From contig JBEIPA010000007.1 in assembly GCA_040377305.1 (NCBI GenBank), forward strand, positions 1-64,000: a stretch of 64,000 nt of DNA, read 5' to 3'. Shown here piece by piece: positions 12,058 to 25,042 of this stretch. Both the position numbers and the translations under genes were made by a program. Each line of letters opens with the position of its first letter. Position 1 is the stretch's first letter. The notes below the pieces were generated by a model. The model searched no databases. It worked only from the letters and a program-made list of their open reading frames with translations, and was not told where the DNA came from. This DNA comes from Flavobacteriales bacterium (GTDB lineage: Bacteria; Bacteroidota; Bacteroidia; Palsa-965).

Positions 12058-14181
12058 TTAGTTAATCCTCACTCCCCAAGCACACACATCATCAATCTGC
12101 TCAATTTCTCCGCGCCAGTTTCTCAAAGTATCGTCGAGCATTTTCTTTTGTTCACTCATGCTAAGCGAATGCAACTTGAGTAGAAGTTCTCTCAGTTGTG
12201 CCACTTTAAACTTCTTGCCATTCGGTCCGCCAAACTGATCGGCAAAGCCATCAGAGAACATATACAACATATCTCCGCGCTGTAAATCAATACGGTGTGT
12301 CGTGAAGGGTTTATTGTCGACATACTTACCAATCGGTTGCTTGTCGGCTTTGTATTCTAACAATGCCCCGTTTCTGACAATGAACAATCCGATATTGGCG
12401 CCAGCCCAAAGAAGCTGATTATCTTTTAGTGAACACAAGCTGATGTCCATTCCATCGAGTACTTGTTCTTCACTCTTCCCGAATTCTTCCATCACAATAT
12501 CTCGCGTCTTCTCAAGAATTTTCGCGGGATCCGTCAACCCGTGTTCACGTACACTGCGATTCAGACCATTGTTACAGAATACTGAGACAAGCGCTCCAGG
12601 AACACCATGACCCGTACAATCGGCAACCGCAAAAAGTGTCGCATCGTTTTTCCGTTCGAGCCAATAGAAGTCTCCGGCAACAATGTCTTTTGGTTTGTAC
12701 AAAACGAAGCTTGATGGTAAAAACTGGCTTACTACTTTATCCGGAGGAAGAATTGCATTCTGAATTCGGCGCGCGTAGTTAATACTATCAAGAATTTCCT
12801 TGTTCTTATGTCCGAGCTGGTGGTGTGCAGTTTCTACCACGTGTTTCTGTTCTTCAATGATCAGTTTTTGTTTTCTGGTGAGTTGAAGACGATTGAACAC
12901 AAAAATCAAAAACGCAACAACGAGTATCAACCCTATGATTGCGGCGATAATGATGATGCGCTGCTTAGCCTGCTTCTCCGCTTCGATGGTCAGTTCAGTC
13001 GCGTGCGTAGCGTCGTCCAGAATTTTCTGCTTGTCGTATTTGTATTGTGCTTGCTGACGGGTTGTAGCTGCCTGAGATTCTTCATTGCTGATGCGATCGC
13101 GATTCTCAATGTACAACTTGAACATCTCAAGAGCTTTGATGTAATTTCCCTGCTTCTCGTAAATGAATGATAGCGCCTCAGCGGCGGTGGAAATGTTCTC
13201 CGGGTAATTGAGCTCGAGCGAAGTTTTCAGACTGCGCTCACCATAGTAGATGCCGGAATCAAGTTGGTTAAGCTCGCCAAAGACACTTGCAATGGCCGCC
13301 TCACTCTTTGCGATGTAAGCTTTCGATCCGTATTGAAGCCGAAGTGCAAGACTTTGGCGATAACAGATCAGTGACGAATCAAGATTTCCTGAACGCTTGT
13401 ACATTCCTCCAAGATTCCCAAGTGCCGTAAACATCCCTCTGTAATTCTTATTGGCAGCACAGATCTCGTAGCTGGTGGAATAATAATAGCGCGCACTATC
13501 GTAATCGCCGTAATCGTCGAAGATCACACCAATATTGTTCAGCCCTTGCGCAACACCTTTATGATCATTGGCCATCGCACGCTCATTCATGCTGCGGCGA
13601 TAACATTCCAGTGCTTTCACTGTATCGTGCTGACTGTGATAGAGCAAGCCTAGATTGTTATACGTATTTCCGATTCCTTTGTGATCACGCAGTGCTTCAC
13701 GGATCAGTATAGCGCGCTCGTAATATTTCAGTGCAAGTTCAATGTCGCCGAGACTGTAATACGTAAGACCAATGTTGTTGCAGACGTTCGCAACTCCACC
13801 ACTATCGTTTACATTTTCGAAAAGTACCAGGGCACTGCTGTAGTTCTCAATTCCTTTTTCAAAATTTCCATCTTCCTTGTAGCAAAAGCCCAGATTGTTC
13901 AGGCACATGGCTTTGTACCGCTCAAAAGTCTGTCGCAAAGGAACATTACTTGTTGCAGAAACTGCCAGTCGCTCGCAATCAACTGTTAGCGTGTCCCAAT
14001 ATCCTATGCGCAGGATGGGCATGTATTCACCCAACGCATAACGCGCATGAATTTTGGAGGTATCGTGCGAGGCTTTTGAGGTGATAACTGTCCTCAGGCT
14101 ATCCGCATACGGATCGTTACCTGCGAATAAGTAAGGGCAGGAGAGAAATGAAAAAAGAAAAAGGAGAGAATAACGGAGCAC
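12058..14181 (-). CDS. TPR-repeat membrane sensor with SpoIIE/PP2C phosphatase
   Basis: Multiple NN(L/I)G TPR units, one TM, KPKDIVAGDFYW, DCTGHGVPGA, FSDGFADQFGG, QIDD. Confidence 0.9.
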   Translation of the reverse strand: MLRYSLLFLFSFLSCPYLFAGNDPYADSLRTVITSKASHDTSKIHARYALGEYMPILRIGYWDTLTVDCERLAVSATSNVPLRQTFERYKAMCLNNLGFCYKEDGNFEKGIENYSSALVLFENVNDSGGVANVCNNIGLTYYSLGDIELALKYYERAILIREALRDHKGIGNTYNNLGLLYHSQHDTVKALECYRRSMNERAMANDHKGVAQGLNNIGVIFDDYGDYDSARYYYSTSYEICAANKNYRGMFTALGNLGGMYKRSGNLDSSLICYRQSLALRLQYGSKAYIAKSEAAIASVFGELNQLDSGIYYGERSLKTSLELNYPENISTAAEALSFIYEKQGNYIKALEMFKLYIENRDRISNEESQAATTRQQAQYKYDKQKILDDATHATELTIEAEKQAKQRIIIIAAIIGLILVVAFLIFVFNRLQLTRKQKLIIEEQKHVVETAHHQLGHKNKEILDSINYARRIQNAILPPDKVVSQFLPSSFVLYKPKDIVAGDFYWLERKNDATLFAVADCTGHGVPGALVSVFCNNGLNRSVREHGLTDPAKILEKTRDIVMEEFGKSEEQVLDGMDISLCSLKDNQLLWAGANIGLFIVRNGALLEYKADKQPIGKYVDNKPFTTHRIDLQRGDMLYMFSDGFADQFGGPNGKKFKVAQLRELLLKLHSLSMSEQKKMLDDTLRNWRGEIEQIDDVCAWGVRIN

Positions 14182-14237
14182 AGGACAAAATACGCAAATC
14201 TGTTTACACTATTCTAACCGTTTGCTAAGTGAACGAA

Positions 14238-15443
14238 CTATTCCACCTCGCAAACAAACAGCTTACTCTCCTTATTTCCTTTCAGAGAAAAAAGAGATTG
14301 GAATCCAACTTCTGCAATGATGAAATTCACTGCGGGCGATTTGTATTCTTCAACCACATTACGGATTTCGATATCCTTCAACTCCGACTTGTCGGTGAAG
14401 CGAATGTAAACTTTGATTGAGAAGTCGTTGTCGAGTAAAGCCTTTCCGGGATTTTTTCCGTGGTTGTTCTTTTCCAACTTCTTCAGCTTGCGATAACCGT
14501 ACTTGTAATCGTAGGTTAATGCGGAAACATCAGATAGAACCGCACTACCGGTCGGGTGACTTCCAGCGCCTTTACCCACGAAAGTTTGCTTGCACGAATA
14601 AGCGCCTTCTACTTCGATTGCGTTGTACTCGTACAATACTTTGAAAAGTTCATCGTCCTGTTTTACAAATCGCGGCATCACGTACACACGGAATTTATCC
14701 CCCGATTTTGCTGCGCTACCAATGAGTTTTATGCGTAAACCTTTTTCTTTCGCATAACGAATATCGCTGAAGGAAATGTTTTGTATACCGAGATTCAAAA
14801 CGTCATCCGGCTTGAGCACAACTCCAAACGCATGCACATTGAGCAGAATGGTTTTGAACAATGTGTCATAACCGGCAACATCCATCCATGGATCCAATTC
14901 AGCAAACCCGCTATCCTGCGCATCTTTCAGAACAACACCGTAATCTTTATTCTCCAATTCCATTCGGGTGAGAATATAGTTCGTTGTTCCGTTGAGAATG
15001 CCCCGCAGACTGCTCAACAACTCATTGTCGTAATATTCTTCGAGTGTACGGATGATGGGAATACTTCCGCCAGCCGATCCTTCGTAGATCAACGCCTTGC
15101 CGGTTTCAACCTGTATGCGATACAACTCATCGAAGTATGTAGCCAGCATTTTTTTACTCGCGCTCACTACGTGCATGCCATTGCGCATCGCTGTACTTGC
15201 AATTCGGTATGCTTCTTCGGTATCCGTGATCATTTCCACCACCACATCAACATCTTTTCGGTCGAGAATATCTTTCGACTCATAAGAAAGCAGCGACTGA
15301 TCAACACTTCGCTTCTTCGTGCGGTCTTTCACACCAATGCCGTGGATATTCGCCTGCAACACTTCAGAATGGTTCAACACATCGTACAATCCTTGTCCAA
15401 CGCAACCGAATCCAAACAACGCTACTGATATTTTATTTTCCAT
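14238..15443 (-). CDS. hom: Homoserine dehydrogenase
   Basis: GFGCVG Rossmann motif, YEGSAGGSIPII, GILNGTTNYIL, GKGAGSHPTGSAVLSD. Confidence 0.93.
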   Translation of the reverse strand: MENKISVALFGFGCVGQGLYDVLNHSEVLQANIHGIGVKDRTKKRSVDQSLLSYESKDILDRKDVDVVVEMITDTEEAYRIASTAMRNGMHVVSASKKMLATYFDELYRIQVETGKALIYEGSAGGSIPIIRTLEEYYDNELLSSLRGILNGTTNYILTRMELENKDYGVVLKDAQDSGFAELDPWMDVAGYDTLFKTILLNVHAFGVVLKPDDVLNLGIQNISFSDIRYAKEKGLRIKLIGSAAKSGDKFRVYVMPRFVKQDDELFKVLYEYNAIEVEGAYSCKQTFVGKGAGSHPTGSAVLSDVSALTYDYKYGYRKLKKLEKNNHGKNPGKALLDNDFSIKVYIRFTDKSELKDIEIRNVVEEYKSPAVNFIIAEVGFQSLFSLKGNKESKLFVCEVE

Positions 15444-15447
15444 GGCT

Positions 15448-15455
15448 CAAATGTA
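15448..15455 (-). promoter_or_regulatory. Bacteroidota -7 promoter element for hom
   Basis: Minus-strand TACATTTG matches TAnnTTTG, 4 nt before the ATG. Confidence 0.5.
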
Positions 15456-15509
15456 AACTTTGGTTGTATTAACTCATTGACTCTTTCTATGCAATTATTG
15501 ATATGATGG

Positions 15510-15602
15510 ATATGTAATCGCTGATTCACGGTTCTCCCCTTTTTCCGAAGGGACTCCTTCGGAGGGGGAGTTAGAGGGGCGAGTGAATCAGCGATTACAT
15601 AT
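15510..15602. repeat. Nested hairpin: perfect 20-bp inverted repeat enclosing a REP-like palindrome
   Basis: atatgtaatcgctgattcac (15510-15529) / gtgaatcagcgattacatat (15583-15602); inner tccgaagg-gact-ccttcgga. Confidence 0.8.
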
Positions 15603-16245
15603 GTAGTCCGCACTCTGTCTTCGACCGATTCACCCATCGTCCTTCTCTACCTCGTCCTTTCACCGTACAATGAATGCAACCCACGGAATTGAAACCGTGT
15701 TTCAGTAGCGGATGTTCCGGTAACGAATGTTTGATTATGTATGCTTTCGCTTCTTCATCACTCATATCGATGATCGGATAGAACTTCAGAATTCCGCTCT
15801 TCTCTTCGAAAATGTGCATCTGTTTTCGATAGCTGTTCTGACTTTGCATCAAACCGCTAACCCATACTTCATAACCTGCTTTGATTTTATCGAGAGGTTC
15901 AACTTTATTGATCGAGCAACACAAATCAGGATCCTTACTCCAGGTTTGATCACTGTTGGTGAAATTGTTCTTCCACTCTTCCGGTGTCACGGTGTGAACG
16001 GTAAGTCCAAGCTGTTTCGTCAGCAGCTCTTTGTATTCGAGTGTTTCTGCGAAGTGATAAGTTGTGTCCAGAAAGATCACGTCCTGATTTTTGTTGGCTT
16101 CACTGAAGATGTTGAGTAACACAGCCGATGTTGTTCCGAATGAAGACGTGAGCAGAACCTTGTCGAAATCAACATACAATTGCTTCACGCGTTCAATGGG
16201 CGTGAGGTTGATGTATTTGTTATTTAGTTCCTGTAGGTTCTTCAC
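15595..16245 (-). CDS. cysH: APS/PAPS reductase (Fe-S type)
   Basis: SSFG, FLDTTYHF, CCSINKVEP, SVGCIHCT, REGRW, ECGLH; start set at the GTGA overlap with the upstream gene. Confidence 0.92.
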   Translation of the reverse strand: MKNLQELNNKYINLTPIERVKQLYVDFDKVLLTSSFGTTSAVLLNIFSEANKNQDVIFLDTTYHFAETLEYKELLTKQLGLTVHTVTPEEWKNNFTNSDQTWSKDPDLCCSINKVEPLDKIKAGYEVWVSGLMQSQNSYRKQMHIFEEKSGILKFYPIIDMSDEEAKAYIIKHSLPEHPLLKHGFNSVGCIHCTVKGRGREGRWVNRSKTECGLHM

Positions 16246-17789
16246 AGTAGTACGGAAAGGAGATTCTTGAGACTTACAATGATGATCGCTATAGCAACTA
16301 CAATCAGACCGGTGCGAACAGGAATTTTGGAAGTCAGATAAGCCGCAATCGGAGCAGCAATTACTCCCCCAATAACAAGCCCCGTAATTTCCTGCCAATG
16401 TGTAATTCCCAGAAAGATGAAGAACGTAAATGTGCTCGTGAGTGTAACGAAGAACTCAGCCAACGACACCGAACCCACAGTGTACTTTACATTTCTTCCT
16501 TGTGCGATGAGGGTTGATGAAACAATCGGTCCCCAGCCTCCGCCACCAATGGAATCCAAAAATGCGCCGAAGAAACCGAGGAGCCCAATGCGTTTTACTT
16601 TCCGCTTCTCTTTGAGTTTCTTGATGGCTTTCGTGAGAATTATTCCTCCCAGAATCAATGTGTAGACGGAGACAAATGGTTTTACGTAGACAGCATATTC
16701 TTCCAGACTTGAAAGCACATAAGCACCAATTGCTGCACCGATGATTCCCGGAATCAACAAATGACGAAAGAGCTTACCGTTTACATTTTTAAACTTCAAG
16801 TGGCTCAATCCGGACGCTCCTGTTGTAAATACTTCGGAAGCATGCACACTTGCACTCGTTGCCGCAGGAGAAATTCCGAACGACATCAGAAACGTGGATG
16901 CTGTAACTCCATACGCCATGCCGAGTGAACCGTCAACCATCTGCGCGATGAATCCTGCCGCTACGCAAATCAGCAAGCGAGAGTCAACCTGATCGTAAAC
17001 TGTGCCGGCATATCCGCCGATTGTTTCAAACGGAATAAGACTGAACAGCAGATGTCCGACCACCATCAGACCCAGTGCCGCGAAACCAAATAGCGACCAG
17101 TATTTCCAGGTTCGCTTTTTGCGTTCAACAAGCTCGCCGGCGAGGTGCGGCTGCAGCGAAATAATATTTTTGTTCTTATTGAGAACAGCAGTGACTTCAT
17201 TGAGCACACGGACTTTTTCCGCGAAATCTCCTTTCAGATGTTCACGAAGTTCATGCAGATTCTCCAGCGTCTGCTGACTTTCTTCCGGAATTGATTCGGC
17301 AAGAATTTCTTTCAGTCGCTTGGTAAACGTTGGCGATTTTCCGTTGGAAGAAATGGCAATTTTCAAATCACCTTTCCGCACAACAGACGACAAGTAGAAA
17401 TCGCAGTACGCTGGTGTGTCGGCAACATTGACGAGGAGATTTCTCTTATGCGCTTCAAGAACAAGTTGATTCACCAGATCAAAATCATTGACCGCAATGA
17501 AAACGATATCCTGCTCGTCGAAGTCATCGTTAGTTACTGCGCGCTCTTCCAGAGAAAGATTCGGATATTGTTCCGCAAGCTTTCGTATTTCAGTCTTTAT
17601 CGTTTTGCCAACGAGCTTTACCTGTGTTGCCGGACTATTTCCGAGTACTGCATGAAGTTTTTCTGCGGCAACGTTTCCACCACCGATGACAAGCAAGCGC
17701 AAATCTTCCAGTTTCAGAAAAACGGGGAAGAGCTTGTTGATGCCGGAAGTTTCGGAGGCAACGTCTGCAGAAATTTCTTCAGTATTCAC
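16242..17789 (-). CDS. Fusion: precorrin-2 dehydrogenase/ferrochelatase (SirC/Met8-like) + TauE/SafE (TSUP) transporter
   Basis: FPVFLKL, VIGGGNVA, VNVAD..CDFY, KIAISSNGKSP; then AGFIAQMVDGSLGMAYG, DSIGGGGWGP and multiple TMs. Confidence 0.88.
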   Translation of the reverse strand: MNTEEISADVASETSGINKLFPVFLKLEDLRLLVIGGGNVAAEKLHAVLGNSPATQVKLVGKTIKTEIRKLAEQYPNLSLEERAVTNDDFDEQDIVFIAVNDFDLVNQLVLEAHKRNLLVNVADTPAYCDFYLSSVVRKGDLKIAISSNGKSPTFTKRLKEILAESIPEESQQTLENLHELREHLKGDFAEKVRVLNEVTAVLNKNKNIISLQPHLAGELVERKKRTWKYWSLFGFAALGLMVVGHLLFSLIPFETIGGYAGTVYDQVDSRLLICVAAGFIAQMVDGSLGMAYGVTASTFLMSFGISPAATSASVHASEVFTTGASGLSHLKFKNVNGKLFRHLLIPGIIGAAIGAYVLSSLEEYAVYVKPFVSVYTLILGGIILTKAIKKLKEKRKVKRIGLLGFFGAFLDSIGGGGWGPIVSSTLIAQGRNVKYTVGSVSLAEFFVTLTSTFTFFIFLGITHWQEITGLVIGGVIAAPIAAYLTSKIPVRTGLIVVAIAIIIVSLKNLLSVLL

Positions 17790-18526
17790 TTCGCCGCCTC
17801 CTTGGGTTTAGGTGCAAGCGTGAACTGATAGATAATTCTTCCGTTGTGAAACTCATCCACGACTGTGCTGTTTCGTTGCAGATACAGGTATAAATAGGTC
17901 AGTTGAATACTGTGGTTGGCATTGAATTTATAACCAACTCCAGCCCACGACCGATTCTGATCGAACGCAGAAAAACCATTAGTTTTTTGGTAAACGAAAA
18001 ATTCATTTCCGGCAATCAGGAAAAGCGGAGATGGTCTTTCTGCACTTCCAAACGAGTACGTGTAATCAACACGCAATCGCAAGCGGAAGGAATGAAAGGT
18101 GAAATTATCGGCAAGTTCAATACCGGCATATTCCTTAATGAAACGCTGTTCAAAACGCGCTCGTGGATAAATCACATGGTGTGAATTCGGTTTGAATTTA
18201 TAACCGACTTCCTGCCACGGTCGTAATTCGGGGCGCGCAGGAAGTTCGTTAGGGTTGGGATAGAGCTGCCAATAGGAAATGCCCGGTGACAACAGCAATC
18301 CCTTTTTGCTTTTCCACGTGGCACAGGGTCGTATCGTCCATTGGAAAATATCACCATCGGTGTATTCATAACGAAATTGTGCATCCAGCCACGCCGACCA
18401 ACTTTCGTTGAATTTGTATTCACCCAAAAGTCCAGTCCACACCAGACTGCGTGTGTTCACAACGCGATCTTGCGCTGAACTGCCTAATGAACTAACTAAA
18501 GCAATCATTACGAGTAACTTTTTCAT
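17786..18526 (-). CDS. DUF2490-like outer-membrane barrel (paralog 2)
   Basis: Signal peptide, ELRPWQE, RARFEQRF, RLRLR, GNEFF, FDQNRSWAGVGY. Confidence 0.8.
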   Translation of the reverse strand: MKKLLVMIALVSSLGSSAQDRVVNTRSLVWTGLLGEYKFNESWSAWLDAQFRYEYTDGDIFQWTIRPCATWKSKKGLLLSPGISYWQLYPNPNELPARPELRPWQEVGYKFKPNSHHVIYPRARFEQRFIKEYAGIELADNFTFHSFRLRLRVDYTYSFGSAERPSPLFLIAGNEFFVYQKTNGFSAFDQNRSWAGVGYKFNANHSIQLTYLYLYLQRNSTVVDEFHNGRIIYQFTLAPKPKEAAK

Positions 18527-18579
18527 ACACACCTTCTTGCTGAAAATTGCAACGCGAAGGTACGTTTTGGGTGTGAAAC

Positions 18580-19326
18580 TTATTTCTGAGAATCGTCAAT
18601 TTGCTGTCGGGTTTGCCCAGTGAATTGTAGTGTTAACCGAATCACGTGGAATTGATCAAAAATAGTACGGGCCCGTTGCTGATAAATGTGGAGATACGTG
18701 AGTTGCGCAGCGAAAGACGCAGTGATCTTGTATGCGAATCCTACCCAAATGCGATTTTGATCATGTGATGTAAAACCGTTTTCGCGACGATGAAACATGA
18801 TTTCGTCTCCAAGCACGAGGGACCATCTTCGGGTTCCTGAATCGCCCAAGGAATAGAAGTACTCCGCACGAAACCTCAGCCGATAAGTGTGAAAGTTAAA
18901 TTCATCAGCGAGTTCAGTACCGTCATACTCTTTAAAGAATCGTTGTTCAAAACGAACACGTGGATAAAAGCTGTGATGAATTCCGAAATCAAATTTCCTT
19001 CCCGCTTCCTGCCACGGTCTGAGCTCCGGTCGCGATGGGCGTCCGTTGGGATTTGAATAGTGAAGGAATGCACAACCACCCGCTGTTAACTGAATTCCGA
19101 ATGCGTTTTTGTATTGCAAACCGCTCCGTATGCCCGATTGGAAAATGTCACCGTCTGTTGTTTCAATGCGAAACAATGCATCGTTCACGATAGACCACTT
19201 CTCGTTGAGCTTGTAGTGTAGTGTTACCGATCCCCAGAACAAGTTGCGCGTATTGACCGTTCGCGATGTTTGAGCGGGAAGGAATGTTGTGATGAGCAAG
19301 GCCAGCACAACCAGGTACTTTTTCAT
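18580..19326 (-). CDS. DUF2490-like outer-membrane barrel (paralog 1)
   Basis: Signal peptide, ELRPWQE, RVRFEQRF, RLRFR, GDEIM, DQNRIWVGFAY. Confidence 0.8.
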   Translation of the reverse strand: MKKYLVVLALLITTFLPAQTSRTVNTRNLFWGSVTLHYKLNEKWSIVNDALFRIETTDGDIFQSGIRSGLQYKNAFGIQLTAGGCAFLHYSNPNGRPSRPELRPWQEAGRKFDFGIHHSFYPRVRFEQRFFKEYDGTELADEFNFHTYRLRFRAEYFYSLGDSGTRRWSLVLGDEIMFHRRENGFTSHDQNRIWVGFAYKITASFAAQLTYLHIYQQRARTIFDQFHVIRLTLQFTGQTRQQIDDSQK

Positions 19327-19333
19327 TTAGTCC

Positions 19334-19969
19334 TCAAAGATTTGGTTGTGGAGTCGTTCGCAGATAAGATTTGATGCGTGTGTATCCTTTCGGAAACTTC
19401 GCAGCAATTTCTTCGTCTTTAACTGCCGGCACAATTATTACATCATCGCCATGTTTCCAATCGGCTGGTGTGGCAACACTATAGTTTGCGGTGAGCTGAA
19501 GTGAATCGATCACACGAATGAGTTCATCGAAATTTCTTCCCGTGCTCGCTGGATAAGTGATGGTCAGTTTTATTTTCTTGTCAGGACCAATCACAAATAC
19601 AGAACGTACCGTGAATTTCTCACTGGCATTCGGATGAATCATATCGTAAAGGGTCGCAACATTTCGATCAGAATCCGCAATGATCGGAAAGTTCACCGTC
19701 GTATTCTGGGTTTCGTTAATGTCTTTAACCCAGCTGATGTGCGACTCAAGCGGATCAACACTCACAGCAAGCACTTTCACCCCGCGCTTGTCGAATTCGG
19801 ATTTAAGCTTTGCGGTGCGTCCAAGTTCGGTTGTGCAAACCGGTGTATAATCGGCAGGATGTGAAAACAAAACACCCCAACTGTTGCTTAGCCATTCGTG
19901 GAAGTTGATTGTTCCTTCTGTTGTTTGAGCGCTGAAGTCTGGCGCAAGATCTCCTAATCGTAGTGACAT
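19334..19969 (-). CDS. 1-Cys peroxiredoxin (Prx6 family)
   Basis: FSHPADYTPVCTTE, TVRSVFVI, YPASTGRNFDE, ATPADW. Confidence 0.95.
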   Translation of the reverse strand: MSLRLGDLAPDFSAQTTEGTINFHEWLSNSWGVLFSHPADYTPVCTTELGRTAKLKSEFDKRGVKVLAVSVDPLESHISWVKDINETQNTTVNFPIIADSDRNVATLYDMIHPNASEKFTVRSVFVIGPDKKIKLTITYPASTGRNFDELIRVIDSLQLTANYSVATPADWKHGDDVIIVPAVKDEEIAAKFPKGYTRIKSYLRTTPQPNL

Positions 19970-19993
19970 GTTATTTGGTTTTAAGGGTTTGTG

Positions 19994-20764
19994 CTAATTG
20001 AGTAATTGATTCTCCAGCGAAAGTACGTAGGCTGCTTGAGGATTCTTGCGAACAACCTCACCAATGACAATGACAGCGGGCGACTTTATTCCTTCCTGCT
20101 TGACTACATCAACGATTGTATCGACAGAACCAATGGCAGCGTTTTCTGTCGGAAGCGATCCGTCCTGAATTACCGCAACAGGCGTAGAGCCTTGTCCAAA
20201 CTTCTGAAACACATTTACAATTTCAGGAAGCTTTGCAAGACCCATCAATACGATGACAGTTGCTTTTGATTGCGCGGCGAGTTTGAAATCTTCCGGAAGT
20301 TTTCCTTCGCTGTTTCTTCCGGTAAGAACCCAGAAACTTTCTGTTACACCACGATGCGTTACGGGAATTCGTTGCAAGGCCGGAACACCAATTGAACTGG
20401 TGATTCCCGGTACAATATCTGTCGGAATATTAAACTGCTCCACATATTCGAGTTCTTCACTTCCGCGTCCGAATACAAATGAATCACCGCCTTTCAAGCG
20501 AACAACGTGTCCGTGGGTGAAAGCATAATCAACAAGTAGCGTGTTTATCTGTTCTTGCGGGTACGCATGGTGACCTTCGCGTTTTCCCACGTAAATTTTC
20601 TTCGCATCAATGGGCGCGTACTTGAATATTTCGGGATTAACGAGTGCATCATAAAGAATTACGTCTGCTTCACTAAGTGCATTAATTCCTTTTACGGTGA
20701 TCAAATCCGGGTCTCCGGGGCCTGCACCTACGAGTGTTACTTTGGGGAAAATATGTTTTGACAT
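19994..20764 (-). CDS. cobA: Uroporphyrinogen-III C-methyltransferase (siroheme synthesis)
   Basis: LVGAGPGDPDLIT, VILYDALV, VVRLKGGD, VPGITS, IPVTHRG; start set at MSKHIFPK. Confidence 0.93.
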   Translation of the reverse strand: MSKHIFPKVTLVGAGPGDPDLITVKGINALSEADVILYDALVNPEIFKYAPIDAKKIYVGKREGHHAYPQEQINTLLVDYAFTHGHVVRLKGGDSFVFGRGSEELEYVEQFNIPTDIVPGITSSIGVPALQRIPVTHRGVTESFWVLTGRNSEGKLPEDFKLAAQSKATVIVLMGLAKLPEIVNVFQKFGQGSTPVAVIQDGSLPTENAAIGSVDTIVDVVKQEGIKSPAVIVIGEVVRKNPQAAYVLSLENQLLN

Positions 20765-20781
20765 TTTAGTCGTTGTTGTGC

Positions 20782-20802
20782 TGACAGGTCTCCGACCTGA
20801 CA
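20782..20802. promoter_or_regulatory. Palindrome upstream of cobA (second copy of the motif upstream of the sulfite reductase)
   Basis: tgacaggtc-tcc-gacctgaca; 20 of 21 bases match 23082-23102. Confidence 0.7.
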
Positions 20803-20817
20803 TGCTGGTTTTAATTG

Positions 20818-20870
20818 GTTGTTCCTCCGTTCGATAATCGGCTTGCCATTCCGAACGGAGCGGGAACAAC
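20818..20870 (-). promoter_or_regulatory. Long RNA hairpin directly after leader peptide 2
   Basis: gttgttcc/ggaacaac and ctccgttcg/cgaacggag arms; no U-tract on the minus strand. Confidence 0.7.
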
Positions 20871-20875
20871 AAGCA

Positions 20876-20923
20876 TCACATGCACATACAACATCGCAGT
20901 TGGCGAGACTGCCATCCAATCAT
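20876..20923 (-). CDS. Putative leader peptide 2, MIGWQSRQLRCCMCM
   Basis: atg att gga tgg cag tct cgc caa ctg cga tgt tgt atg tgc atg tga; five consecutive Cys/Met codons, located between sulfite reductase and cobA. Confidence 0.65.
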   Translation of the reverse strand: MIGWQSRQLRCCMCM

Positions 20924-20948
20924 CCGATCATCTAATAATCCTATCATC

Positions 20949-23075
20949 TCAATTCAGTGTTGGATCTATTACAAATGTTTGTTTTTCCAGTTCCGGGATA
21001 GAATCAAGAAACAAGCGCGCTTCATTGATATACTTGATCGCAAATTCCTTCTCGGGCTTGTTCAACGAGATTTGTGTCACGAGCTCTTTGAATGTCACCG
21101 GAATCAAAAGCTCCAGTTGAAAGTGCTTGTCAAAATCATGTATGATTCCATGTTGTGTATTCACTTGTACATCACGTTTCAGCAAAAGCGCTTTGGCAGC
21201 GTGAATAAATGCATTGTACGCTTTATACGTTGCGTCATTGTAGCGACCCGCTGAGAAATTCTCATGGGCAGCTTGTAACGCATCTTTTGCCTCGAAGAGT
21301 AGGGTTGCGGTCAAATCAATTTTCACCCCGGCACATTCTCCGATTCCGATTGCAGTTGCGTACCGCTCTTCCTGTCCCCAGTCAATGAACTCTTGTGCTT
21401 TCACATCGTGTGTTGAAGAAAATGCTTTGAGCAACTGATAGAAGTAGTCTTTGCCTTTGCGATCGTAGTACGCAATGAAATCTTCGGACTGATATTTCAA
21501 TTGGGAAAAATCCGCAAGCAAAGTGCGCAACACCGCAGTGGCCCGCTTCGAAGGAAATTTCAGGATCTTGTCGGCAATCCTGCCTTCACCATTTCCTGAA
21601 ATTCCTCCGCCGAGCAGAAGTTGTAAAGCGGGAACCACATCATTACCCGACTTTACAGAACTGCCGTGAAATCCGATTGACGCAACCGCGTGTTGTCCGC
21701 AACTGTTCATGCAACCACTGATTTTTATTGAAAGATCTTTCTGCGCTGCGAATTGCTGAAATTCAGTTTGAATCACATTTTCCAATGCAGCAGATACACT
21801 AGTGCTGTTTGAAATTGCCAGGTTGCACGTGTCTGTTCCCGGGCAGGAAGTAATATCTGCGAAGGCGTTGGCGCCAACTTCGGCAAAACTATTGGGGTTC
21901 AGTTCGCGATAGAGTGCAGGTAATGCAGTTTCATGAACATACCGAAGTAGCAAGCTTTGTCCGATTGTAACGCGCACATCATCGGCAGCGTATTTCTCAG
22001 CGATGGTTGCGAATACACGCACCCGATCCGAAAGAATGTTTCCTTGCGGAATCTTTACAAATACACCGTACCATCCTTGCTGTTTCTGTTCAAAGGTGTT
22101 CGCTGATTTCCACGCCTGAAATTTCTCATCATTCGTCACACGAAAAGTTGTGAATGCTTGCTGCAGAACCTTAGGGGTTGATTCTTCCGCGACCTCAATT
22201 TTCTGTTTCGTGTGCAACAATGCGCCCTTCTCGATTTCAGTCAAACGCAATACTTCTTCAATGCCGAGTTTCGCAACGAGATACTTCAATCGCGCTTTCT
22301 GACGATTGTTTCTTTCTCCGTGACGATCGAAGACACGGATCAAAGCCTCTGAGAACGGAATCAATTCATCGACCGGAAGAAATTCAAACGCAATGTGCGC
22401 CGGAATCGGTTGTGCACCGAGTCCACCTCCCAGCAGGACTTTAAATCCTCGGGTGATTTTTCCATCAATGATTTCCACTTTCGGAATGAAACCGAGATCG
22501 TGAATGAAGCTGATTGCTGTATCGTTGTCGGATGAAGAAAACGAAATCTTGATTTTTCTTCCGAGATCCTGCTGAATCGGATTGCGCAGGAAGTGACGGA
22601 ACAGCGCATTTGCGTACGGCGTGATATCGAATGGTTCGTTTGGATCAATTCCCGCAAGAACAGAACCGGTGATATTACGCACCGTGTTTCCGCAAGCTTC
22701 ACGCAAAGTGAGTTCATCGCGCTCAAGTTCTGCCCACAATTGCGGTGTACGATCAAGACTCACGAAATGAAACTGCACATCTTGCCTTGTGGTAAGGTGA
22801 AGATTTCCGGTTGAGTACTCATCACTCAGATCAGCAAGCCGCCGCAGTTGCACGAAGGAAAGTTTTCCATGAGGAACTTTGATGCGAACCATGTTCACGC
22901 CTTGCTGACGCTGCCCATACACACCACGCGCCAGACGCAGTGCACGGAATTTCTCCGGATCAATTTTGCCTTCCTGGAAAAGTTGAATCTTCTCCGCAAG
23001 TTGAGCGATATCTTTTTCGATGATCACTTGTCCATTTACCGCCGGACTTTCTAATTCTGTTCTGAAGCTTTGCAT
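20949..23075 (-). CDS. Ferredoxin-type sulfite/nitrite reductase hemoprotein with C-terminal HEPN-like domain
   Basis: RLARGVYGQRQ, HLTTRQD, EACGNTVRN, SCPGTDTC and SGCMNSCGQH siroheme/Fe-S ligands; C-terminal AYNAFIHAAKALLL..NTQHGII; start MQSFRTE. Confidence 0.92.
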   Translation of the reverse strand: MQSFRTELESPAVNGQVIIEKDIAQLAEKIQLFQEGKIDPEKFRALRLARGVYGQRQQGVNMVRIKVPHGKLSFVQLRRLADLSDEYSTGNLHLTTRQDVQFHFVSLDRTPQLWAELERDELTLREACGNTVRNITGSVLAGIDPNEPFDITPYANALFRHFLRNPIQQDLGRKIKISFSSSDNDTAISFIHDLGFIPKVEIIDGKITRGFKVLLGGGLGAQPIPAHIAFEFLPVDELIPFSEALIRVFDRHGERNNRQKARLKYLVAKLGIEEVLRLTEIEKGALLHTKQKIEVAEESTPKVLQQAFTTFRVTNDEKFQAWKSANTFEQKQQGWYGVFVKIPQGNILSDRVRVFATIAEKYAADDVRVTIGQSLLLRYVHETALPALYRELNPNSFAEVGANAFADITSCPGTDTCNLAISNSTSVSAALENVIQTEFQQFAAQKDLSIKISGCMNSCGQHAVASIGFHGSSVKSGNDVVPALQLLLGGGISGNGEGRIADKILKFPSKRATAVLRTLLADFSQLKYQSEDFIAYYDRKGKDYFYQLLKAFSSTHDVKAQEFIDWGQEERYATAIGIGECAGVKIDLTATLLFEAKDALQAAHENFSAGRYNDATYKAYNAFIHAAKALLLKRDVQVNTQHGIIHDFDKHFQLELLIPVTFKELVTQISLNKPEKEFAIKYINEARLFLDSIPELEKQTFVIDPTLN

Positions 23076-23081
23076 TTGTAT

Positions 23082-23102
23082 TGTCAGGTCTCCGACCTGA
23101 CA
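23082..23102. promoter_or_regulatory. Perfect palindrome 6 nt upstream of the sulfite reductase start
   Basis: tgtcaggtc-tcc-gacctgaca. Confidence 0.7.
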
Positions 23103-23114
23103 TGGTTTTAGTTT

Positions 23115-23165
23115 GTGATGTCGGGATCCCAATCCCGACGGTGATGTCGGGATCCCAATCCCGAC
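23115..23165. repeat. Two tandem copies (26-bp period) of a REP-like hairpin
   Basis: gtgatgtcgggatcccaatcccgac twice; core gtcgggat-ccca-atcccgac. Confidence 0.8.
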
Positions 23166-23175
23166 ATTTACTCAG

Positions 23176-23246
23176 AGGTCTCGGGCGGAATTGAACCGCC
23201 ATATCAAGTTTTGCAGACTTGTGCCTAACCATTCGGCCACAAGACC
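23176..23246 (-). tRNA. tRNA-Cys (GCA), CCA not encoded
   Basis: GGTCTTG/CGAGACC acceptor stem, D-arm GCCGAATGGTTAGGC, anticodon arm CAAGT-CT-GCA-AA-ACTTG, T-arm GGCGG-TTCAATT-CCGCC, U discriminator. Confidence 0.96.
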
Positions 23247-23297
23247 AGTTTATTGTTTCACTAATTTTTCCTTTGGGAATCGCGAGAGCGTAGAAAT

Positions 23298-23332
23298 AAA
23301 AAAGCCTCCGCGGTTCTATCCGGGAGGCTTTT
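23298..23332 (-). terminator. Intrinsic terminator of the Met/Cys attenuator
   Basis: mRNA aaaagcctcccgg-atagaa-ccgcggaggcttttttattt. Confidence 0.88.
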
Positions 23333-23355
23333 GCTCAACACACCAACATTTGTTT

Positions 23356-23451
23356 TCACATTCGTGTATCACCTCCCGTACTGCACATCATGCAGCAGCA
23401 CATCATACACATCATGTATGACTGAGAGTTGATATTACGAGTGATTTTCAT
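23356..23451 (-). CDS. Attenuator leader peptide 1, MKITRNINSQSYMMCMMCCCMMCSTGGDTRM
   Basis: 31 codons with 11 consecutive Met/Cys codons; codons 25-27 (acg gga ggt) contain cgggagg, complementary to cctcccg in the terminator 5' arm. Confidence 0.88.
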   Translation of the reverse strand: MKITRNINSQSYMMCMMCCCMMCSTGGDTRM

Positions 23452-23499
23452 GTTGATATAATTCTAATTTTTTTGAAAGGCCGAAACCTTTTGCGTGGA

Positions 23500-23532
23500 C
23501 AAAGATATGCGCGAATATTTCAGTAAAACAAA
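23500..23532 (-). promoter_or_regulatory. Bacteroidota housekeeping-sigma promoter of the sulfur operon
   Basis: Minus strand TTTG-N21-TATCTTTG (-33/-7 consensus), 48 nt upstream of the leader ATG. Confidence 0.75.
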
Positions 23533-23662
23533 TTTCGTCGTAAAAAAAGTTGAGTTCGCGTGATAAAAGGCGGAACTGAACAACATAATTATAGCATGTA
23601 TTCAATTGATAAGCAGCGTATTGCGGCGGACCAAAAATATTTTGAATTCGGGAGTTGGACAG

Positions 23663-25042
23663 CTACTTTTTTCGATCTGTTGTTTTGACAAGAACGCCAT
23701 TCTCATAAAGTTCTTCGCGCACAAGCTTGCCGCGCTCATCATAAACTTTCCACCAACCTGTTTTGGTGTAAGTTGGTTCTCCCGAAAGGTGGTGCGCCCA
23801 AGCTATTGGAAGATATTCTCCTTCTTCCTTTTTCTTCGAATTTGGATAATAGAAAGTCCATACTCCCGTGCGCAAATAACGGTAAGTTCCGGATGGAGTG
23901 TATAATCGTGCAGTGTCTTGGGATAACAATGGTGAGCGTAGGTAGTGTATTACAGAATCTATACTCACGGTAGGTTTATCATGAGAATATTCATGACAGA
24001 TCCAGAAGCAGAGTCCGATTTCTCTTAGCTCCAGTTCATATTGCCAGGGTACCGGAACACGACACGCTCGCTTCTGCGAGGACTGCGCGAGCAGGTAGCC
24101 AGGATTAGTTGATAGAGTTCCATTGGAAATTAAATTCCCTTCCTGATCGAATTCCTTTAACGAAGTTCTTCCAGTACTCTCGTCATGAAAATATTCTTCT
24201 CGTTTCTTTCCATTCACATGGTACCAGATGCATGAGCCGGAATATTCATCATTCTTAAAATGACATATTGAAATAATTCTTCCCTGTTGCCAAGAAGTAT
24301 CTGTGCCGTTTCTTTCGCCATGTAAGTATTCCCGAGATGAAACCAACTCTTTGTTGAAATACGATTTCCATCGTCCTTCTTTTTTTCCGGACTTGAAATT
24401 GCCTTTACTGTATTGAAATTTGTCGTGCACTTCAATCCATTCTCCTTCTTCTTTTCCGTTAATGTATGTACCGCCTCCAATTAAGGTATCGTGTGAAGTA
24501 ACCACCCATTTTCCGTGATAACCAAATTCATTCACGGAACCTTTCCAGGTGAGGTACCCTTGTTGGATTTCCCAAAGTCCTTCCGGTACATCATTTACAA
24601 AATGCCGGATCTCGGTCACTTTACCTTCTTCGTCAAACACTAGCCAATCGCCATGTGCTTTCCCACCCTGGTAGTATCTTTTCTCCTCTACGATAGTCGA
24701 GTATTGGTGATAGTAAACCACCTCACCATTCAGCAGATTATTCTTATAGTTGAATTTAGCTGAAGGATCATTGGATCTCCATTCCCCTTCCTTCTTCCCA
24801 TTCCGGTAGGTTCCTGAGTAGGTTGTATATCCATTCCGCTTGATCTCCCACCAGCCTTCTTTCAGTCCATTCTCCACACGACCAACTGCCGTCCAGCCCC
24901 CACATAAATCAAAAGTGTCAGTTAATGAAGCCGCGTTCTCAACTTCATCACCATTGGGATAAATCGTGATTGTTCCGGTTCTATTCTGCCCTGCGAGTGT
25001 GGCACACAACAAGACCAAAAACCATGTCGCAAGTTTTCCCAT
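23663..25042 (-). CDS. Secreted MORN-variant repeat protein (YwqK-like)
   Basis: Signal peptide and repeated GxYxNGKKEGxW units. Confidence 0.82.
   Translation of the reverse strand: MGKLATWFLVLLCATLAGQNRTGTITIYPNGDEVENAASLTDTFDLCGGWTAVGRVENGLKEGWWEIKRNGYTTYSGTYRNGKKEGEWRSNDPSAKFNYKNNLLNGEVVYYHQYSTIVEEKRYYQGGKAHGDWLVFDEEGKVTEIRHFVNDVPEGLWEIQQGYLTWKGSVNEFGYHGKWVVTSHDTLIGGGTYINGKEEGEWIEVHDKFQYSKGNFKSGKKEGRWKSYFNKELVSSREYLHGERNGTDTSWQQGRIISICHFKNDEYSGSCIWYHVNGKKREEYFHDESTGRTSLKEFDQEGNLISNGTLSTNPGYLLAQSSQKRACRVPVPWQYELELREIGLCFWICHEYSHDKPTVSIDSVIHYLRSPLLSQDTARLYTPSGTYRYLRTGVWTFYYPNSKKKEEGEYLPIAWAHHLSGEPTYTKTGWWKVYDERGKLVREELYENGVLVKTTDRKK

Follow-up and report, generated by a model that had tools for sequence, protein, structure and literature searches.

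A clade-wide cysteine micro-ORF between sir and cobA in Bacteroidia, a candidate translational switch on cobA

In the leader-peptide transcription attenuators trpL and hisL, the control codons of a short ORF are read by the ribosome. Tandem uORF attenuators are said to precede Salmonella mgtCBR, the tandem control of rtpA was reportedly described by Chen and Yanofsky in 2003 and 2004, and, to our knowledge, there are also older comparative attenuator predictions, which lay outside our literature search. Amino-acid-sensing ORFs are usually sought in 5′ leaders. The short cysteine ORF analysed here is operon-internal and appears to be fed by the stop codon of the gene upstream.

A close counterpart is Ms5788A of mycobacteria. 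According to the part of the report cited here, its Cys codons pair with the Shine–Dalgarno (SD) region, and compensatory mutants restore control (Canestrari et al., 10.1101/834739); the same part describes it as leaderless, first in its transcript and masking the SD region. As far as that part of the report goes, our locus resembles Ms5788A in having a short ORF with consecutive Cys codons (here CC), in the pairing of these codons, here by prediction, with the translation start region of the following gene, which a stall is predicted to free, and in having sulfur-metabolism genes downstream and no need for a terminator. It differs in that the micro-ORF is operon-internal, starts at an upstream stop codon and lies behind a separate 5′ Cys/Met attenuator, and in that its predicted target is an A/C-rich, SD-free region. 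Since it is neither leaderless nor the first ORF and has no SD target, the micro-ORF is not of the Ms5788A type as defined.

A second counterpart is rtpA (anti-TRAP) of Bacillus subtilis, in which, in the portion of the account cited, two tiers respond to one uncharged tRNA, first at transcription and then through a leader-peptide stall that acts on initiation (PMC10327191). Our locus would share this two-tier arrangement. In rtpA, however, the amino acid is Trp, the first tier is a T-box, and both tiers lie in the 5′ leader of one gene and not behind a coding gene. With trpL, hisL and mgtCBR the locus shares control codons read by the ribosome, and this anatomy is seen in the operon's own 5′ leader, whereas the internal element, unlike attenuators of the trpL/hisL type, has no conserved terminator. 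Finally, translational coupling is explained by models of termination-reinitiation or RNA unfolding, as set out in the cited sections of PMC12548453. As in coupled gene pairs, the start of the micro-ORF overlaps the upstream stop or lies within a few bases of it; unlike in such pairs, the coupled ORF is here a presumed sensor and not a structural gene. A literature search that covered titles and abstract openings, with most subscription papers outside its scope, returned no account of Bacteroidota Cys leaders or of a Cys ORF placed internally ahead of cobA.

The features of the locus within the window, i.e., the whole 64 kb stretch of DNA that was analysed, are the following.

23451-23356, minus: 5′ leader ORF MKITRNINSQSYMMCMMCCCMMCSTGGDTRM*, a 31-codon Cys/Met leader, the first tier
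23296-23332, minus: intrinsic-terminator-like hairpin with U-tract, 3′ of the 5′ leader (z = -6.7 for leader plus terminator)
23175-23246, minus: tRNA-Cys(GCA), 3′ of the leader terminator and 5′ of sir
23075-20949, minus: sir, siroheme nitrite/sulfite reductase with a C-terminal HEPN domain, 708 aa (Pfam NIR_SIR, NIR_SIR_ferr, HEPN)
20948-20912, minus: GATGATAG-type 8-mer repeat array in the 5′ half of the micro-ORF, three units (24 nt) between its in-frame ATGs
20947-20876, minus: internal micro-ORF MIGLLDDRMIGWQSRQLRCCMCM*, 23 codons, with a second in-frame ATG at 20923
20893-20879, minus: control codons TGT TGT ATG TGC ATG; the closing helix is predicted to have its 5′ arm at 20892-20882
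20870-20818, minus: 53-nt hairpin with no U-tract, its sequence not conserved beyond the closest relatives
20804-20782, minus: REP-like palindrome containing the in-frame AUG 20803, with a second copy at 23104-23085 before sir
20781-20772, minus: GCACAACAAC, -17..-8 of cobA, the predicted 3′ arm, which includes A-12 and A-13
20764-19994, minus: cobA, uroporphyrinogen-III C-methyltransferase, 256 aa, the predicted target of the switch

The gene identities given in the original prediction were borne out: the reductase carries the NIR_SIR and HEPN domains, and CobA exceeds the NCBIfam cut-offs. The start of cobA agrees with the starts in L031 and L116, the closest relatives. The sir protein stays under every NCBIfam equivalog cut-off, with the NirA family as the best match, and its presumed role in sulfite reduction is suggested by the cysH and cysG neighbours. 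The order on the minus strand is the Cys/Met leader, the terminator-like hairpin, tRNA-Cys, sir, a spacer of 184 nt, cobA and then the downstream genes. Namely, 3′ of cobA lie a 1-Cys peroxiredoxin gene (prx), two DUF2490 genes and a sirohaem-synthase/TauE fusion (cysG-TauE), followed by a PAPS/APS-reductase gene (cysH-like) and a homoserine dehydrogenase gene (hom). The micro-ORF lies ahead of genes of sulfur or cysteine metabolism. Judging by the gene order, the set from the leader to hom presumably forms a sulfur-assimilation operon read as a single transcript. The Rfam search of the 64 kb window at the gathering score matched tRNA only, with no riboswitch or T-box. A long palindromic element was also seen at 15600-15510 (minus), between the cysH-like gene and hom.

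As predicted, a frame encoding MIGWQSRQLRCCMCM* lies between the reductase gene and cobA at 20923-20876 (minus). The frame stands as it was read, but translation more likely starts at 20947 than at 20923; this earlier ATG lies 1 nt beyond the sir stop codon (20951-20949). Both ATGs fall inside the 8-mer array. This array gives ~50-58 BLAST matches in the genome, where 35 three-unit arrays are found at one mismatch, and its commonness initially spoke for the micro-ORF being an accident. Among the loci listed, the array at the micro-ORF is common only to this locus, L031 and L116, and in all three the ATG at the sir stop is in frame with TGT-TGT. A sigma-70 scan, whose model does not cover Bacteroidota promoters and may have overlooked an internal start site, found no promoter-like site in the spacer. 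The promoter and terminator scan of 14000-24000 returned 10 sites of each kind, where 14.5 and 11 would be expected, and it must be regarded as insensitive since it missed the leader terminator. A 5-bp terminator-like match within the micro-ORF (20912-20896) was at chance level and was discarded.

For the comparison among relatives, sir loci were collected from relatives, from 9 of the 64 parts of GTDB (80 loci), from metagenomes (63 loci) and from relatives of three ORF-bearing genomes. Among the 201 distinct loci, the gene next to sir was cobA in 183 and cysG-TauE in 6, and 12 had no recognised neighbour. An ATG-initiated ORF with adjacent Cys codons was present in the spacer of 46 of the 201 loci, or 45 after dropping L002, in which the CC ORF lies at +161 and is not the stop-proximal one. 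The removal of five near-duplicates (L033, L220, L232, L242, L246) left 40 de-duplicated loci. One of them, L005 (genome G012, unpublished), is counted both in these 40 and in the 18 loci of the own genus, and contributes one case each to the tallies for ORF, TGT, ACAAC and pairing.

In the FastTree phylogeny of 175 loci, all 44 ORF-bearing loci fell into one clade of 81 loci (support 0.91), and none was among the other 94; L250 was too short to be placed. The ORF-bearing records that carry a name are uncultured Bacteroidia throughout. The sampled loci of Pedobacter, Mucilaginibacter, Pontibacter, Chitinophaga and flavobacteria were without the micro-ORF, and many of them were without a spacer. 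Within the own genus of the studied genome (18 sir-cobA loci), the Cys pair was kept in 8, a stop-proximal ORF without the pair was present in 7, neither in 1, and 2 had no spacer. In 34 of the 40 de-duplicated loci, an ATG lies at -8..+6 of the sir stop (in 16 of these at +1), which is the start position of a termination-reinitiation coupled pair. The micro-ORFs are 18-36 codons long, and the only traits common to all are the paired Cys codons and how far they lie from the start (Cys1 at codon 10-22). The original prediction had been made to depend on conservation of the frame, and across the clade the frame is indeed kept, as is the di-Cys tract, in its sequence context and in its position. 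We conclude that the operon-internal Cys micro-ORF is a real element of clade-wide occurrence.

In the degenerate spacers of L016, L134, L143, L144, L175, L010 and L155, TGTTG is kept but is read as Cys-Trp or Cys-stop, and some of these frames extend beyond the cobA start. In L053 (G065:C165:14357-14722), sir is followed by an insert, a duplicated HEPN-like ORF, and the micro-ORF now lies behind this insert, still before cobA.

The translation of the micro-ORF was assessed in spacers of at least 45 nt, selected without requiring an ORF (n = 81). A near-stop ATG and TGYTGY occurred together in 34 of them, and in all 34 the two were in frame with the frame open; a near-stop ATG alone is common, being present in 21 of the 41 spacers without TGYTGY. 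When the own-genus group was set apart, codons -8..-2 ahead of the two Cys codons gave, in the remaining 32 loci, pS 0.77 and pN 0.48 in frame, against pS/pN of 0.49/0.53 and 0.52/0.54 in the shifted frames. The coding signal was weak in the own-genus group (8 loci; pS 0.83, pN 0.71). Meanwhile, near-identical strains, seen in low-depth contigs, showed no frame-breaking change in the Cys tract. The micro-ORF is very probably translated.

The choice of codons in the tract is also uneven. Cys1 is TGT in 38 of 40 loci and Cys2 in 37 of 40, while Cys3 is TGT in just 12 of 34, and the TGT share of Cys codons in sir and cobA is 123/251 (49%). In the same 12 loci, TGT accounted for 4 of 32 Cys codons in the 5′ leaders versus 23 of 24 in the internal ORF. 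The Tyr preceding the Cys pair is encoded by TAT in 15 of 15 cases (768/1190 in genes). This fixation of TGT (and TAT) codons indicates that UGUUGUUG is kept as RNA and not merely as Cys.

At the other end of the spacer, ACAAC, the complement to this sequence, occurs at -35..+3 of cobA in 23 of the 40 ORF loci versus 6 of 42 long ORF-less cobA spacers, and in 5 of 60 start regions of neighbouring genes from these loci. Within the clade, it stands before cobA in 22 of 39 loci with the ORF versus 2 of 20 without it. A genome-wide control of 1962 starts gave ACAAC in 5.6%, which, owing to crude start calls, serves as a rough check only. The Watson–Crick match runs into the cobA AUG in five loci (L099, L129, L240, L243, L245) and also in L250. 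The tract-to-start duplex amounts to -10.6 kcal/mol for cognate and -9.6 kcal/mol for swapped partners (permutation p = 0.001, overstated like all p-values here because the loci are kin treated as independent), and the own cobA start beats the start of another gene for tract pairing in 47 of 60 comparisons. Among the TGC-bearing tracts, an exact G-containing complement was found in 2 of 5 (L034, L164) versus 0 of 35 TGT-TGT loci, and these two look like compensatory cases that support the pairing. Taken together, the evidence for translation of the micro-ORF and for constraint at the RNA level is good.

In both the MFE and the centroid folds of the minus strand, GUUGU-A-UGUGC (20892-20882) pairs with GCACA-ACAAC (20781-20772), which reproduces the predicted 10-bp helix with one bulge; 7 nt separate its end from the cobA AUG at 20764. 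The stability of the fold corresponds to z = -2.5, with 2 of 200 shuffles equally stable. When the last 20 nt were shuffled, 6 of 200 sequences reached the 9.9 expected tract-to-start pairs, so that the helix is modestly above chance for this genome alone. In Bacteroidia, four upstream adenines are initiation determinants, A-12 and A-13 among them, according to the part of PMC9976891 cited here, and the predicted helix buries these two.

A ribosome was modelled as a 30-nt footprint. When placed on the Cys codons, it changed the mean unpaired fraction of -17..-8 in this genome from 0.01 to 0.80. Over the set of loci, it lowered the mean opening cost of -20..+10 from 5.8 to 3.3 kcal/mol; this cost was 5.7 kcal/mol with an early footprint, 4.6 with a footprint at the stop and 3.8 after TGT-to-TGC recoding. 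For -22..+3, the unpaired fraction was 0.52 in the free state, 0.53 with the early footprint and 0.70 in the stalled state. A gain of more than 0.1 was obtained in 24 of 40 loci on stalling and in 4 of 40 with the early footprint, with a loss in 0 of 40; the 16 loci without a predicted switch include the two closest relatives.

Pairing of the tract with the cobA initiation region, a target without SD, is predicted here and in 25 of the 40 loci. In the other 15, fewer than 3 tract-to-start pairs are expected, among them L031 (0.0) and L116 (0.5), where local hairpins compete with this pairing, although in L116 an exact complement of 7 nt is present at -25..-19. Base shuffles of the own start region were beaten at p < 0.05 in just 11 of 40 loci (median percentile 0.12), so much of the pairing follows from the A/C-rich composition. 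In the group of L040, L048, L235 and L238, ACAAC is missing. For L040 and L238, the start was opened more by a footprint at the stop than by a stall (0.85 vs 0.39 and 0.73 vs 0.60), i.e., with opposite sign. In this genome, the footprint at the micro-ORF stop opens the start equally to the stall (0.80), so the output would depend on dwell time only.

The in-frame AUG at 20803 would start cobA 13 codons early and has A at -3, -6, -12 and -13. Its region is unchanged on stalling in the model (0.64 vs 0.63), and this AUG is a possible bypass of the switch in this genome. In summary, the proposed translational masking of cobA gains from the fixed TGT-TGT, the ACAAC enrichment, the advantage of cognate over swapped partners and the two putative compensatory cases, and loses by the 15 of 40 loci with fewer than 3 expected pairs; we regard the evidence that the Cys tract would mask the cobA start as moderate.

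The 53-nt hairpin without a U-tract lies where it had been described. It is single-copy in the genome, other loci have unrelated hairpins or none, and it was rejected as a conserved element; it likely serves only to bring the helix arms nearer. No intrinsic terminator with an antiterminator was found behind the micro-ORF in this spacer, and none is conserved across the 40 loci. The 20-nt palindrome (20804-20785, 23104-23085) has two copies in the genome at ≤2 mismatches, just before cobA and sir, and the wider palindrome pattern gives 30 strand-hits. Near-identical strains carry its perfect form before cobA.

Some other structures were seen in relatives. In L040, L048, L235, L238, L242 and L244, a conserved long hairpin spans the stretch between the stop of the micro-ORF and roughly -12 of cobA, and the 3′ arm recurs there as a second, internal copy; this may be a different switch, of opposite sign. 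In L218, L219, L232, L240, L248 and L250, hairpins across the micro-ORF stop codon vary on both arms, as judged by eye. A three-segment switch read by eye in L218 was rejected, as the start-proximal helix formed in the free, stalled and stop states.

With slightly better than even confidence, we favour the reading that the micro-ORF is a translational cysteine switch on cobA, similar to Ms5788A but operon-internal, stop-coupled and SD-free. Ribosomes finishing sir would load the micro-ORF by termination-reinitiation. When Cys-tRNA is ample, the micro-ORF would be crossed fast, the helix would reform and the cobA start would be closed. When charged tRNA-Cys is scarce, ribosomes would stall on UGU-UGU, the ACAAC-rich stretch would be freed and cobA would be translated. 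Stalling would then raise CobA, and with it the siroheme precursor, only while sir is translated and cysteine is short; methionine may be sensed in addition, through the Met codons that follow the Cys run. It is possible, though we put it forward tentatively, that the element works as an AND gate, in which ribosomes finishing sir enter a Cys ORF whose UGU codons mask an SD-free, adenine-based cobA start, so that production of siroheme precursor would require both ongoing translation of the apo-enzyme and a shortage of cysteine.

The CobA step consumes SAM and uroporphyrinogen, which gives a rationale for matching it to the supply of the client enzyme, and the switch, if true, would explain such matching. 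The AND gate, if true, would amount to attenuation through masking of the Bacteroidia upstream adenines by a sensor loaded by the preceding gene. More generally, short intercistronic ORFs, which annotation skips, could then retune single genes in a polycistronic message. As Bacteroidia initiate without SD pairing, the element also offers a natural, mutable test of the bases that must be free for initiation.

The Cys sensor may have another output, namely Rho-dependent termination, mRNA decay or ribosome hand-over to cobA, with a sign that may vary by sub-clade, and we hold this to be rather unlikely. It would suit the Cys runs kept in loci without predicted pairing (L040, L048, L131, L218, L235, L238, L248), the excess of C over G in 27 of 40 spacers and the hairpin found between the ORF and cobA in most loci, which differs by locus and is often mobile-palindrome-like. 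Yet it leaves the fixed TGT-TGT and the ACAAC enrichment unexplained; terminator-like hairpins with a U-run were found by a loose scan in only 9 of 40 loci, at scattered positions and not here, and the spacer of this genome, with 29 C to 26 G, lends no support to the Rho form. That the peptide itself acts, for instance by arresting the ribosome as a nascent chain or by carrying metal or sulfur to the reductase on its Cys residues, seems very unlikely: a peptide function would not account for the use of TGT instead of TGC, and neither the 5′ leader ORF nor the internal micro-ORF matched NCBIfam. One sub-clade does keep Y-I-x-I-K-Y-D/E with synonymous variation (pS 0.85, pN 0.14), a result biased by the choice of its 18 loci by that very motif, so that the unselected test given above is preferred; the motif is absent in this genus.

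The ORF could also be a decaying ancestral sensor or a neutral coupling bridge in this lineage, with the 10-bp match a by-product of the A/C-rich start and the REP-like insert. The Cys pair is missing in 10 of the 18 own-genus loci, the 5′ half of the micro-ORF is repeat-derived, a REP-like palindrome sits in the spacer, L031 and L116 lack the predicted switch, and 59 of 200 shuffles for this genome yield at least 5 pairs. We nevertheless consider this explanation unlikely, as the three repeat-array loci all keep the sir-stop ATG in frame with TGT-TGT, the loci that lost the Cys pair are mostly without ACAAC as well (2/20), and near-identical strains have an intact tract frame and a change at 20771 that turns U-G into U-A and extends the helix (one event, depth ~3).

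The 5′ leader of the sir operon, the first tier, has the anatomy of a classical leader-peptide transcription attenuator. Placed between the terminator of this leader and sir, the tRNA-Cys gene may itself be under attenuator control. Such 5′ Cys/Met leaders ahead of sir were found in many loci of the set. Two tandem Cys/Met leader ORFs precede sir in L005, L006, L008-L012, L014, L017-L019, L022, L024 and L106, so that together with the internal ORF some operons carry three Cys ORFs; the same scan gave one leader in the studied genome. Another short Cys/Met ORF, with a hairpin and a U-run behind it, was observed ahead of an adenylylsulfate kinase gene (G000:C49:71862-71933 on the plus strand and L253:363-434).
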